A stretch of 64,000 nucleotides of DNA. It comes from a phage. The stretch lies in the sequence record PV636258.1; one strand, written 5' to 3'. Of the stretch, positions 3,635-27,743 are shown piece after piece (position 1 is the first letter of the stretch; each line of letters starts with the position of its first letter). The notes under the pieces are model-generated. The model worked only from the letters and a program-made list of their open reading frames with translations, ran no database searches and was not told the DNA's origin. Both the position numbers and the translations under genes were made by a program.

Positions 3635-6600
3635 TTATGCCAGAGCAATAAGACGGAAGTCTTTGAATGATGGAGGAGCAACTCGGTTCCCCCGTACAAG
3701 CGCTCGGACTTTCAGGCCAACAAACGGATTGTTGCTCGCCACAGTCTTGTCATACTCATATTCAAAGAATGTGGAACCGTCGTTAACCAGAGGCGAAGTT
3801 GGGGTGACGTCTTCCCAAGCCACACTATCCATCTCTTGCCCTGCTCGTAGAAGTTTCACCTGCACTTTCATCGAAGACTGAGAAGGCAGCATCGCCCCGA
3901 AGAACAGTTTCACAGTCGAACATGGGTTATCGAAACCAATGTCCTTTGTGACATATTTGAAAACGTCTTCAAAAGGATCTACACCATAAGAGTTGAAGAT
4001 CACGCTCAGGTCATCACCATCAATCATCGGTGCTGTGTACACGTTGTTTTCACTACGAGTCATAGTAGCACGAATCTGGAAGTCACCAACCTGACGATAG
4101 ATACCTTCAGTCGGTAACGCCACGTCAGTGTCAGTTTCAAACTCAGCCCAATCAGACATAGAATTTGAAGTGGCATCGCGATAACGGTATTCCAATTTCA
4201 GAATTGAACCTTCCAGAGCCGAATTGGTAACGCTGGCATAGAACATATCAACCAGATAATTGCCCAAGAAAGAAGCATTATCCCCACCGATTTGTCCATT
4301 GCTGTCTGCTGCCGTACCGACGTCAATCTTGAATGAAGTATAGCTCGCATCTGTCACAGTAAACGTTTTGTTAAGTTGTTCAGGAGTAAAGCCACAACCG
4401 CCTGTCAATTCAGAAAGAGTGACATTGTTCCCAGCAACCAAACCATGACCAGGTGCAAACACAGTCACAACAGAAGACCCGCTTACGCAGTTCAGAGTGT
4501 TCAATCCCAACGGACGTTGTTTTGGCCCGAGCTTCGGATCAAATGTTACAACGTTCTGTCCCGCAGCGAAGTTACAACGATATATGCGGAATTTCATATC
4601 GGCCATTTGGTTCGGAGACCAAGTTGAACCGTTTGAAGAAGTGAAGAACACCCCTGTATACGGTTGTTTGGCGATATATTCGTTGGACAGAAGGTTTTTC
4701 TTGCCCATTTCCGCGATATACGCGTTGTAATCCTGAGTATTCGCCAACAAAACGATAGCAAACTCAGTAGATGCTTGCAGATACACCGGATAATCAAAGG
4801 TGAACTTCGTACCGCCGGAAGAGTCTGTAGAGATCGTCACTTCAGATGGGTTCAAAGTCTTACGAGTAATGACTGTGTGAGAAGGTAAGCCGTTCTCCAT
4901 CTCGCGAATTTCCAGAGTGATCGGAACATCACGTGACTTGGTAGAGAAGAATACTTCCACGCCTTCGATATACTCGCCGCCATTCTTAGTCGCCACCATA
5001 AACGATTGGGCAATCGGATCACGCCATTGGTCGACCACAACTTCAGAAGTGCTGGTTTCGGTGCGAGTACTGGCAGTGTAACCCAGGACACGAGTGTTGA
5101 CAAAGGTCTTTTGAATACCTTGTTTCTTACCGAAAGATTTATGAACAATTTCTGCATTGGTCAGTGTATCATCCGCAGATTTACTGTCAACAGGGCTATC
5201 CGTTAAGCGGAACACGTTGTCGCCTGTGTTGAACTTGATTGTATCGTTCTGTGGAACGCGGAATACACCCTTAACAGCACCATTGGCATCAGTGGTGATT
5301 GGGTCTCCGAAATTACCGCCATTCGGTTTGCAATACAGATTGACGTCACGACCAGAGAAGAACGCATACATACGAGTGAAAGGTCGCAGTCCAGATGCGT
5401 CGAAAGAAATATCGATCTCGCGCATGTATGGGATAACTTGCGTCTCCACAATCTGTTCACCAGTCATGGTCGTGGTTGTTTTGTCCGTGTATGTATATGT
5501 GGTGACATCACGGGCAGAAACAGTCGTGCGGTAACGATATCCCCACCACACACCACCAGCACCATGCGGTTCCCAAACACGATCAGAAACAGAAACAGTA
5601 CGCCATGTTCCGTACACTGAACCTTCTTGTACAGTACCACGGGTGTTGATCGTTTCATTGATAATACGCGGCGCAACATAATAGTTTTCGAACCAGTAGT
5701 CTGTGGTCGGGTTAATCTTCAAGAAACCTTCCCAATTGAATACTGCATACGGGTTAACGTTGATCGTCGTCGTCGCATATTCTTGGTTCACCGAGATTTC
5801 AGGCGTGTAATTGCAAACCACCATCCCATCCATCACTTTGTTCCAGCCAACCGGAGTCATGTCAACAACGTTTTGTTGTACAAACGGGCGCAGACGTCCG
5901 TTTTCGGTATCGATAGAACCCATCCAATCTTCAGACAAGTCATCAATCAACCGGAAGTCTTTGAACGGATCAGCTGCAATACCATTTTTGAAACGGGGAT
6001 TGCCCGTGATGGGGTCGAACACTTGCTGTGTCATCGCTGAAGATTCCAGCTGTGACAGAGAGGTATAGTATTCAACATTGGAAATACGGGTTTCCAGTTT
6101 ACCGATATCGCGCATCGTATAACGACGATTATCAATAGTTCGAATTTGGATATCATCAATATTCGGTGTATACGGCGGGATCAACAATTCATACAAACGC
6201 ATGGCGTTCGCTGGGATTGCTGGAGAAGCCAGGTTGTTAGAACTAATGCCTCGAGCCACACCAAACACACCGTTGTCTGCCAGATAAATCGCGTCAATAC
6301 GCGGCAGATAATATTCTGTGTCCAGAATAACTGCAGTGTTTGGACGAACCATATCTGTGTCAGAAGTTCCGTTGGTGATTTTCGGACGGAAATCCAAACT
6401 ATCTGCCAGGCCGTACACCGCGCCTGATGTAGAAGATGTATAATTCGGGATATCTTTATAATCCATCGAAGTATACGAATCAGCAGAGAAGAAATCACCG
6501 GAACTGTGGGCGAAGTATTGATACACCACTGTATACGTCCCTGAGATTGCTCCAGCGCTGGATAACAAGTTAGACTTGTAATACCCTGCATCACGCTGTC

Positions 6601-24804: not shown

Positions 24805-25183
24805 ACTTGAGAGAGCGTTGTATGAAATAGGGCAATGCCTTGCAGACCTCGACGCCTACACATTCTAGACACTGGTGGGCGCTGGCGAAGATCTCAATAT
24901 AAGCTGGTCATCAAGGGTAGCTCCCTGACTAGACGAACAATGAGAGGCCGAACTAAGGGGAAACCCGAGACAGGCGCAGTATTTTCGAGTTCGCAAAACA
25001 GTGATCATCTGACAAGTGTGATCACTCTTCGATAGAGACATTACATCGTGGCCATCAACCACATCCTCGCTCTAGTGATGAGTGGTGTTATGTTTCTGTC
25101 GGCCAGCCTCGTTTGGTCCGAGCGATAGAGGACAAGTATTCTGTGTGACGAAGACATTGAATGCGAGTTGTAACATTTGGTTG

Positions 25184-25261
25184 CAACTTTGATGGCTCTG
25201 GATTTTATAAACCATGTCTATGGGTGACGCGGGATCTTTAGTACCAGAGCCATCAAAGTTG
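25184..25261. repeat. 18-bp perfect inverted repeat with 42-nt interior
   Basis: CAACTTTGATGGCTCTGG (25184-25201) and CCAGAGCCATCAAAGTTG (25244-25261). Confidence 0.7.
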
Positions 25262-25592
25262 TGTCCAACCCGATCTTGCAAGCCCGTATCCCTGTATGGT
25301 CAAGACTTGCAAGTGGAAAGCCCTGGAAAAATAAACGCCTGTGGTGAGGCTACGGTGCAAGCCAAAGACCCACAGAAGCGCGTTGCCGTGAGGCGCACAA
25401 ACAGGCATGCATGAACTGATCATGCACAAACGGGATAAAGGGTTGAGAGACCTTGGTTGGTCACAACATACAATTAATCCATAACGGGGAAGCAATATGA
25501 CTTGGCGACAGCGCGGATACAAAACCGTAGAATTGATTTAAAATTGCCGGCGTCCTGGTTGAGTGAGAGATCACTGCCGAAACCAGGAGGAA

Positions 25593-27110: not shown

Positions 27111-27194
27111 GTGAGTGTGGCAGAGCGGTCGAATGCAGGAGACTGTAAATCTCCCCGTAACAGCGCGGTGGTTCAAATCCATCCACTCACACCA
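27111..27194 (+). tRNA. tRNA-Tyr (anticodon GTA), long variable arm
   Basis: Acceptor GTGAGTG/CACTCAC, 3-bp D-stem, anticodon stem GGAGA/TCTCC with loop CTGTAAA, long variable arm, T-arm GGTGG-TTCAAAT-CCATC, encoded CCA. Confidence 0.85.
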
Positions 27195-27270: not shown

Positions 27271-27359
27271 GGAAGGTTGCCCGAGAGGTTTAAGGGACTC
27301 GACTGCTAATCGAGTGGGGCTTTTAGCCCCCGAAGGTTCGAATCCTTCACCTTCCGCCA
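27271..27359 (+). tRNA. tRNA-Ser (anticodon GCT), long variable arm
   Basis: Acceptor GGAAGGT/ACCTTCC, anticodon stem CTCGA/TCGAG loop CTGCTAA, variable-arm hairpin GGGGC-TTTTA-GCCCC, T-arm GAAGG-TTCGAAT-CCTTC, encoded CCA. Confidence 0.85.
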
Positions 27360-27362
27360 AAT

Positions 27363-27448
27363 TGCTTCATAGCTCGAGTGGTAGAGCGCAGGAAAGTTTC
27401 GAGAGAACAAGGTGCCTGAGGTCACTGGTTCGAATCCAGTTGAAGCAA
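27363..27448 (+). ncRNA. tRNA-like gene with canonical acceptor, D and T arms but a 22-nt anticodon-region loop
   Basis: Acceptor TGCTTCA/TGAAGCA, D-arm GCTC-GAGTGGTA-GAGC, T-arm ACTGG-TTCGAAT-CCAGT all perfect; anticodon arm is a 4-bp stem CAGG/CCTG around 22 nt; no encoded CCA. Confidence 0.4.
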
Positions 27449-27458
27449 TCAGAATAAT

Positions 27459-27613
27459 GAGTGTGACTTCCTGAAGATGAAGAAGGTGTGCATGCCGACT
27501 TCATAACAATCTGGGGTTAAGGAAGTTAAGAAAGTCGCAGGATATGCAAGTGAAATGCAAATAGCTTTCAACGTCCTGACGATTTCGGGTTCGATTCCCG
27601 ACGCACTCTCCCA
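27459..27613 (+). ncRNA. Candidate stable RNA with tRNA-like ends (about 150 nt)
   Basis: GAGTGTG at 27459-27465 pairs (one G-T) with CGCACTC placed directly after T-arm TCGGG-TTCGATT-CCCGA; followed by T and CCCA; lies between the last tRNA-like gene and the terminator at 27674. Confidence 0.25.
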
Positions 27614-27673: not shown

Positions 27674-27704
27674 AGCCCGATCAGGAAGATCGGGCTTCTT
27701 TTTG
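27674..27704 (+). terminator. Intrinsic terminator closing the tRNA/stable-RNA cluster
   Basis: AGCCCGATC-AGGAA-GATCGGGCT hairpin followed by TCTTTTTG. Confidence 0.7.
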
Positions 27705-27743
27705 TCTATAATAAATAGATCTGACTTGTAAAGGAGGTCTATT

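Follow-up and report, generated by a model that had tools for sequence, protein, structure and literature searches.

A tRNA-Ile-derived RNA of Kuttervirus phages with a conserved 30-nt module in the place of its anticodon arm

Phage tRNA genes are currently viewed either as helpers of codon usage or as replacements for tRNAs that host defences have destroyed, and for tRNA-Ile the anticodon is in addition a major identity element for IleRS. Among the tRNA genes of phage T4 there are also non-decoding stable RNAs, 'species 1 and 2' (rnaC/rnaD), which have tRNA-like termini and no known function. The C4 immunity RNAs of P1 and P7 and the CI RNA of P4 are small non-coding phage RNAs that are matured by tRNA-processing enzymes and have their specificity in exposed loops. 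Finally, the engineered E. coli 'tRNA scaffold' keeps the acceptor, D and T arms of a tRNA and has a foreign structured RNA instead of the anticodon stem-loop, an arrangement that gives processing and protection from nucleases.

The locus described here differs from the current view of phage tRNA genes in that a decoding tRNA-Ile has been given up, its body displays a conserved hairpin, and unrelated phages employ this hairpin on a different carrier. The element is an 86-nt tRNA-shaped RNA gene on the plus strand of a Kuttervirus (Ackermannviridae) phage, within a stretch of 64,000 nt (record PV636258.1) that is called the window throughout. Its region is 100% identical to the corresponding one in the Salmonella phages PM10 and Chennai (Kuttervirus, Ackermannviridae), and it is placed in a tRNA operon with the following features:

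27111-27194, plus strand: tRNA-Tyr (ARAGORN, Rfam)
27271-27359, plus strand: tRNA-Ser (ARAGORN, Rfam), ending 3 nt before the element
27363-27448, plus strand: whole element, a tRNA-Ile-derived body with the anticodon arm replaced (cmscan, RF00005)
27363-27369, plus strand: 5' strand of the acceptor stem, TGCTTCA (UGCUUCA), pairing with 27441-27447 (7 bp)
27372-27387, plus strand: D arm, GCTC-GAGTGGTA-GAGC (as RNA, GCUC-GAGUGGUA-GAGC), with G18 and G19 kept
27389-27418, plus strand: 30-nt module in the place of the anticodon arm, as aligned to the ECML-4 tRNA-Ile
27398-27407, plus strand: inner hairpin UUC-GAGA-GAA with a GNRA tetraloop (RNAfold minimum-energy structure; open-tetraloop scan)
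27419-27423, plus strand: variable region AGGTC, 5 nt
27424-27440, plus strand: T arm, ACTGG-TTCGAAT-CCAGT (ACUGG-UUCGAAU-CCAGU), with a canonical T loop, the same as the T arm of the orthologous tRNA-Ile
27441-27448, plus strand: 3' strand of the acceptor stem, TGAAGCA (UGAAGCA, 27441-27447), and discriminator A (27448)
27459-27612, plus strand: element X, a second, larger tRNA-like RNA directly after the element and before the terminator
27674-27705, plus strand: intrinsic terminator (terminator scan; 9-bp stem, then a T run) that closes the tRNA/tRNA-like transcription unit

Besides a 7-bp acceptor stem, the element has G18 and G19 in its D arm and a UUCRA loop in its T arm, and it scores above the Rfam gathering threshold: Infernal gave a match to the tRNA model (RF00005) of 48.7 bits (gathering score 29, E 1.4e-8), obtained only with permissive filters, in which the 22 inner bases are scored as an insertion. 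It was missed by a default-filter Rfam run and by ARAGORN. At the decoding end we find a 4-bp stem around 22 nt and no 5-bp anticodon stem, 7-nt loop, U33 or anticodon. A preliminary description had read from the letters alone that the acceptor, D and T arms are perfect and correctly spaced, and that 30 nt instead of 17 form a 4-bp stem with a 22-nt loop that includes a TTC-GAGA-GAA hairpin; the sequence bears out both statements, and the minimum-energy structure from RNAfold is this cloverleaf with the UUC-GAGA-GAA hairpin. The folding energy is not unusual (z-scores of -1.05 for the whole element and -0.01 for the arm alone, neither significant), and the case for the element therefore rests on comparison with relatives. 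Among nine distinct arm-bearing homologues all 207 of 207 pair cells are paired (100%), with compensatory double changes in five of the seven acceptor pairs between the Ackermannviridae and N4-like copies. The D stem is invariant among homologues and the D loop varies, with GG retained. By this comparison, the cloverleaf is real and under selection. At the 3' end of the element CCA is not encoded (UCA is next), and in sister phages it is (...gcaaTCAg vs ...gcaaCCAg).

The window contains no tmRNA that ARAGORN finds, and the sole Rfam tmRNA match, of 10.6 bits, lies on the T arm of element X. In this second RNA, which is not called by ARAGORN or Rfam, an acceptor-like helix (GAGUGUG/CGCACUC) is combined with a canonical T arm (UCGGG-UUCGAUU-CCCGA); ~95 nt separate the 5' acceptor-like strand from the T arm, and RNAfold gives -49.1 kcal/mol (z = -3.18). 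ECML-4 has it in conserved form; in Agtrevirus it varies and is replaced or reduced.

The same locus in related phages holds one of two forms. The arm form is carried by ~150 related phage records, the type phages Vi01 and CBA120 among them, and is the majority in the Kuttervirus comparison; 13 Kuttervirus records have instead a normal 73-nt tRNA-Ile(GAU), located 6 nt downstream of the same tRNA-Ser (ECML-4, Mooltan, Matapan, PS5, phage 241, STML-13-1, GEC_vB_N6, GEC_vB_GOT, SeF3a, UTK0004 and AKM_ssTn, the count of 13 taking in ECML-4 and STML-13-1 as two database records each). The window element and the ECML-4 tRNA-Ile agree in acceptor stem, D stem, variable region and T arm and differ slightly in the D loop, whereas the entire anticodon arm, stem included, differs (TTCCC-CTGATAA-GGGAG in ECML-4 vs CAGG...CCTG in the window). 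Read from this alignment, the difference between the loci is the replacement of an arm and not an insertion of 13 nt, because the stem itself also differs from the orthologous tRNA-Ile arm. The tRNA-Ile locus of Gamaleyavirus (N4-like) likewise exists in two forms: tRNA-Ile(AAU) in nithesis and the arm form in pSb-1 and Bas96, with flanks, acceptor stem (GCCCACU/AGUGGGU) and T arm identical in the three. The aligned loci show the allelic replacement of tRNA-Ile by the arm form in two phage lineages. The preliminary description had proposed that the locus be compared in related phages for the same insertion, and had considered that orthologous loci might carry a normal 7-nt anticodon loop with this copy clearly degenerating. 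The ~150 records have the arm form, but as a replacement rather than an insertion; the normal loop does exist, in the 13 Kuttervirus records and in nithesis, but the window copy is not degenerating, being the majority form and nearly invariant across phage families.

In GenBank the arm form is labelled 'tRNA-OTHER' in PM10, Det7 and many others, and elsewhere it is given the conflicting isotypes Pro, Leu and Val; the presence of this arm in the place of an anticodon arm explains a recurring annotation conflict in Ackermannviridae and N4-like genomes. We also note that in nithesis a 'tRNA-OTHER' (L129:2344-2419) adjoins the tRNA-Ile, with an apparently oversized anticodon loop (~8 nt) and no definite ARAGORN anticodon, and that the tRNA-Ile-type Kutterviruses have ~210 extra non-coding bases between tRNA-Tyr and tRNA-Ser that are absent from the window (ECML-4, L002:229-516). 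Two records named for other hosts, OR844942.1 ('Enterococcus phage Efm 3-10') and MN871475.1 ('Pseudomonas phage Pa-sanjiao'), contain the Kuttervirus locus at 98% identity, which suggests that their host names are mislabelled or the records contaminated.

The module that takes the place of the 17-nt anticodon arm of a normal tRNA has the layout CAGG-AAAGT-TTC-GAGA-GAA-CAAGGTG-CCTG: an outer stem (CAGG/CCUG), an internal loop of 5 nt (AAAGU) and 7 nt (CAAGGUG), and the inner hairpin. Eight sequence variants of it were found over three scaffold contexts, all of them compatible with the fold. The outer stem varies between G-C and G.U, and position 6, opposite U25, is A or G and once U. When metagenomes were scanned with the tetraloop as NNNN and four other module positions left free, the matches had only GNRA tetraloops (GAGA, GAAA, GGAA and GGGA), and there were no contexts beyond the three already known. 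This variation in the tetraloop argues against a reader of the arm that is specific for the loop. The inner arm is otherwise nearly invariant, so that support for the internal fold consists of three GNRA-preserving and two wobble-compatible changes with little true covariation, and the high DNA identity of the module across phages may in part reflect recent horizontal transfer rather than long purifying selection. Going by its conservation across these contexts, we take the module to be the selected, functional part of the RNA, and one that cannot read codons.

When viral contigs were scanned for a portion of the arm, three genuine contexts emerged besides chance matches in coding regions: the tRNA body of Ackermannviridae, the tRNA body of N4-like phages, and ~50 loci of HK620-like prophages. 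In the last of these the arm is part of a four-way RNA, UGUGGUG-AAU-GCGC-AGGCUGAU-GCGC-G-[arm]-UAUACAA-GCCGG-AGAUCAGCG-CCGGC-CACCACA, which we refer to as scaffold-2. The copies on scaffold-2, in HK620, in HK633-type prophages and in phage swi2, are identical to the window module at 28-30 of 30 bases, and scaffold-2 with this arm occurs, unannotated, in 107-108 of 5426 complete E. coli genomes. Scaffold-2 itself is not in the window, where its hairpins AAUGCGC-AGGCUGAU-GCGC and GCCGG-AGAUCAGCA-CCGGC have no match at up to 3 mismatches. Judged by this identity of bases, the same module is reused on a second scaffold.

The arm appears to be confined to phages and prophages, because it is absent both from species-representative genomes (among 185,579 bacterial and archaeal genomes there were only chance matches within coding regions) and from core E. 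coli sequence (BLAST against the 5426 E. coli genomes matched only prophage copies). The E. coli result also led us to reject the arm as a mimic of a host RNA. Compared with Rfam, the arm alone gave only noise, and no published description of the arm or of scaffold-2 was found in literature searches that included the raw sequence strings. In a by-eye comparison, SRP RNA, the sarcin-ricin loop, kink-turns, loop E and boxB did not fit the arm, and an 8-nt identity with 16S rRNA (AACAAGGU) is, by estimate, at chance level.

The element looks like a selected non-decoding RNA rather than an intron-bearing or dead gene. The explanation that we favour, with moderate confidence, is that it is a non-decoding, tRNA-shaped stable RNA that presents a conserved module to a trans-acting partner. 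In this RNA the body of the phage tRNA-Ile is kept, with the acceptor, D and T arms and the elbow nucleotides intact, and the anticodon arm has given way to two stems, of 4 bp and 3 bp, that are separated by an asymmetric, purine-rich internal loop and capped by a GNRA tetraloop. Having a tRNA body, the transcript would be a substrate of host tRNA maturation (RNase P, 3' trimming and CCA addition) and would have the stability and shape of a tRNA. The internal loop and hairpin would be shown to a trans-acting partner in enterobacterial cells, most likely a protein and less likely an RNA, and the molecule would be a naturally occurring aptamer or decoy of the 'tRNA-scaffolded' kind, produced in the infected cell together with the real tRNAs of the phage and presumably to its benefit. 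A tRNA-derived regulatory RNA or a decoy had been among the possibilities named in the preliminary description; of this, a non-decoding tRNA-derived RNA under selection is supported, which may act as a decoy or as a regulator.

By the features that define these classes, the window element is not a decoding tRNA, an intron-containing tRNA, a pseudogene, a tmRNA or a member of the C4 family. With phage tRNA-Ile (RF00005; ECML-4, nithesis) it has in common, within a lineage, the locus, acceptor stem, D stem, T arm and variable region, and it differs in that the 30-nt module stands where tRNA-Ile has a 17-nt arm with a 5-bp stem, 7-nt loop, U33 and anticodon. Like T4 species 1 and 2, it would be a non-decoding stable RNA in a phage tRNA cluster, but its full cloverleaf can be traced to a tRNA-Ile and its module is common to other scaffolds. 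The resemblance to the engineered tRNA scaffold, in which the acceptor, D and T arms are likewise kept around a foreign structured RNA, is one of analogy and not of family, and that construct is man-made whereas the arrangement in the window is natural and conserved. The C4 and CI RNAs (RF01695) differ in fold, and the window has no C4 match and no antisense target above chance. Scaffold-2, a four-way RNA resembling a cloverleaf, has the identical 30-nt module where a tRNA has its anticodon arm, but its body is different and absent from the window, the cargo arm is all that is common to both, and it carries ~90 other cargo types.

Other explanations were weighed against a non-decoding RNA with a trans-acting partner. 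One to which we give a low probability is that of a base-pairing riboregulator, in which the strands of the internal loop (AGGAR... / ...GAACAAGGUG) would pair with host or phage RNA, be it an mRNA, the anti-Shine-Dalgarno region or the scaffolded RNA of another phage. The loop strands are Shine-Dalgarno-like, and there is a precedent in the phage antisense RNAs that RNase P processes, C4 and CI among them; a C4 match occurs in the scaffold-2 locus L152. As a weak lead, one scaffold-2 cargo (L148) holds an 11-nt exact complement of the 3' loop strand of the arm, CACCTTGTTCT, where chance would give ~0.03 such matches over the 6.9 kb of cargo; this is, however, a single borderline observation. 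Against pairing, complementarity to the arm in the 64-kb window is at chance (the longest is 11 nt, and shuffled arms reach 10-14 nt), and BLAST detects no host target in the 5426 E. coli genomes.

Equally unlikely, in our estimate, is that the element acts in cis on the transcript of the tRNA operon, through processing or punctuation, as a folding aid or in anti-termination, with an arm that has no function in trans. The element does have tRNA-Ser before it and another structured RNA and a terminator after it, and scaffold-2 is found in leader positions (directly before N-like genes, in the leader of the HK620 late operon, next to tRNA clusters). However, a normal tRNA-Ile at the site would punctuate equally well, which leaves unexplained both the replacement of the arm and its conservation over scaffolds and genomic contexts, and the HK022 immunity region, with putL and putR, yielded none of the scaffold-2 motifs.

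A sub-case of the favoured explanation, which we consider improbable, makes the RNA a competitive inhibitor or decoy of a defence nuclease that acts on anticodon arms (OLD-family Toprim or anticodon nucleases). The neighbouring genes encode tRNA-Tyr, Asn, Met and Ser, which are isotypes that phages carry against tRNA-targeting defences. P2-OLD cuts off the anticodon arm of tRNAs at CNG motifs that are paired within its stem (PMC12445682), and, as a weak lead, the outer stem CAGG/CCUG contains a paired CAG/CUG that resembles the CNG pseudo-palindrome cut by this enzyme. Yet the pair is one register off the reported positions 28-30/40-42, rescue from P2-OLD came from replacing the cleaved tRNA and not from competition (PMC12445682), a CNG pair is expected by chance in an estimated one in six or so stems, and the conserved internal loop would be left unexplained.

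That the element is a decaying, merely tolerated tRNA-Ile pseudogene is highly improbable. Relatives do have an intact tRNA-Ile at the same site, the element cannot decode, and ARAGORN rejects it. We rejected this reading on conservation: degenerating arms and lineage-specific drift are not what is found, with the three remaining arms all perfect, stems perfect in the nine distinct homologues, virtually the same 30 nt in ~150 genomes, tetraloops that are GNRA only, and the same arm in two further settings, namely the N4-like phages, whose acceptor stem differs but is compensated, and an unrelated scaffold. The preliminary description had already argued against a point-mutated pseudogene, and the near-invariance of the arm over ~150 genomes and three contexts contradicts decay.

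An intron-containing tRNA, from which ~13 nt would be removed to leave a decoding tRNA and which had been suggested earlier as a short intervening sequence, has in its favour the length excess of exactly 13 nt, the existence of short tRNA introns in archaea, eukaryotes and some eukaryotic viruses, and the Pro, Leu and Val calls of several GenBank annotators, which imply an intron model but conflict with one another; it is very unlikely indeed because no 13-nt deletion yields a usable anticodon loop (in an enumeration of all contiguous deletions position 33 is A or C and never U, and the fifth stem pair would be A.G), and we rejected it since the whole arm, stem included, is replaced relative to tRNA-Ile and the same arm is found in a non-tRNA scaffold that has no T loop and takes other inserts of ~27 to >300 nt. 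There is also no group I intron match in Rfam and no bulge-helix-bulge signal, the 22 nt folding in RNAfold as a simple hairpin with an internal loop, and we know of no bacterial machinery for splicing short tRNA introns.

We return to the favoured reading, of a tRNA body that presents a module, and to the other carrier of that module. The four-way RNA of scaffold-2 resembles a cloverleaf, with two hairpins that hardly vary (GCGC-AGGCUGAU-GCGC and GCCGG-AGAUCAGCA-CCGGC) and an acceptor-like stem that covaries. It has no canonical T or D loops and instead contains complementary loops, GCUGAU/AUCAGC, which suggests a Watson-Crick substitute for the tRNA elbow. A search with its conserved 19-mer gave at least 120 loci; the matches listed comprise more than 100 distinct scaffold sequences and at least about 108 distinct inserts in at least about 89 clusters, and among them the inserts at the anticodon-arm position range from ~27 to >300 nt. 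In 46 sequences stripped of cargo, 98% of the pair cells are paired, with double changes in three of five T-like pairs and in six of seven acceptor-like pairs, the latter count being partly circular because the acceptor strands were located via complementarity. No Rfam model matches scaffold-2, which is apparently an undescribed phage RNA family.

The hosts of scaffold-2 include HK620 (L016:3276-3377), HK633, P1, mEp460, swi2, Taipeivirus, the N4-like phage nithesis and many metagenomic viral contigs (L124-L129, L130-L244). It lies beside tRNA clusters in P1, swi2, L164, L179 and L186, and in many lambdoid prophages it ends ~27-31 nt before a small gene for an arginine-rich N-like antiterminator, which is the place where nutL would be expected (L066:3020-3440, and also L227, L143, L214, L174, L223, L243 and L161; N-like peptide e.g. 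MTVVITYLADDNARNRRRARRQ...). In HK620 it is located between pR'/qut and the annotated late terminator, in the late-operon leader. P1 and mEp460 share one cargo, variants of which show a compensatory change from G-C to A-U. The insert at L134 (~3701-3779, minus strand) has a hammerhead-like core (CUGAUGAG-GCC-AUAA-GGC-CGAAAC) and matches Rfam Hammerhead_HH9 at 28.2 bits (E 0.0055), below the gathering score.

Several known RNAs were considered as counterparts and rejected. The arm is not a boxB/nut partner of N proteins, as the same cargo is paired with different N peptides (L143 vs L214), and in HK620 the annotated nutL and N are elsewhere. The put RNA of HK022 was set aside on the absence of scaffold-2 motifs from its immunity region; put RNA has a two-stem V shape (PMC9378689). 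With rydB scaffold-2 has only one hairpin in common, and the P22 small RNA P22E, upstream of gene 13, is unrelated in sequence.

As represented by these loci, the scaffold-2 family shows that the grafting of structured RNA onto a tRNA-shaped body is widespread in phages, and the window element is the case in which the carrier body is a true tRNA. There is a substantial chance that the element belongs to a broader, undescribed system of cargo on tRNA scaffolds. In its full form, which we put forward only tentatively, phages of enteric and other Proteobacteria would use tRNA-shaped RNAs as interchangeable carriers of small functional RNA cargo at the anticodon-arm position; the module in the window would be one such cargo, having passed between two carriers, a true tRNA-Ile body (Ackermannviridae, N4-like) and a pseudo-tRNA scaffold (HK620-like), the latter of which elsewhere has ~90 other cargo types, one of them hammerhead-like, and the cargos would act in trans, for example as decoys or inhibitors of factors of the host or of rival phages. 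If true, this would add a class of phage RNA effectors that has not been described before. If the hairpin of the window element binds such a factor, it would form part of a natural RNA-display system and be a new type of phage-encoded RNA effector, and the body would also be a ready-made, evolution-tested scaffold for RNA expression.

Two further structures were noted in passing. Upstream of tRNA-Met, at 25169-25280, the window contains a long near-perfect inverted repeat (...CAACTTTGATGGCTCTGG...CCAGAGCCATCAAAGTTG...) that gives spurious microRNA-family matches on both strands. Just 5' of scaffold-2 (L016:3190-3290, L124-L129), an apparent long helix with the strands ACAGGUAAGAGCAUU and AGUGCUCUUUCCGKU encloses a further variable insert; the helix shows compensatory changes in P1 (AAGGGUAUU / AGUACCCUU), and its 3' strand is also boxA-like (UGCUCUUU).
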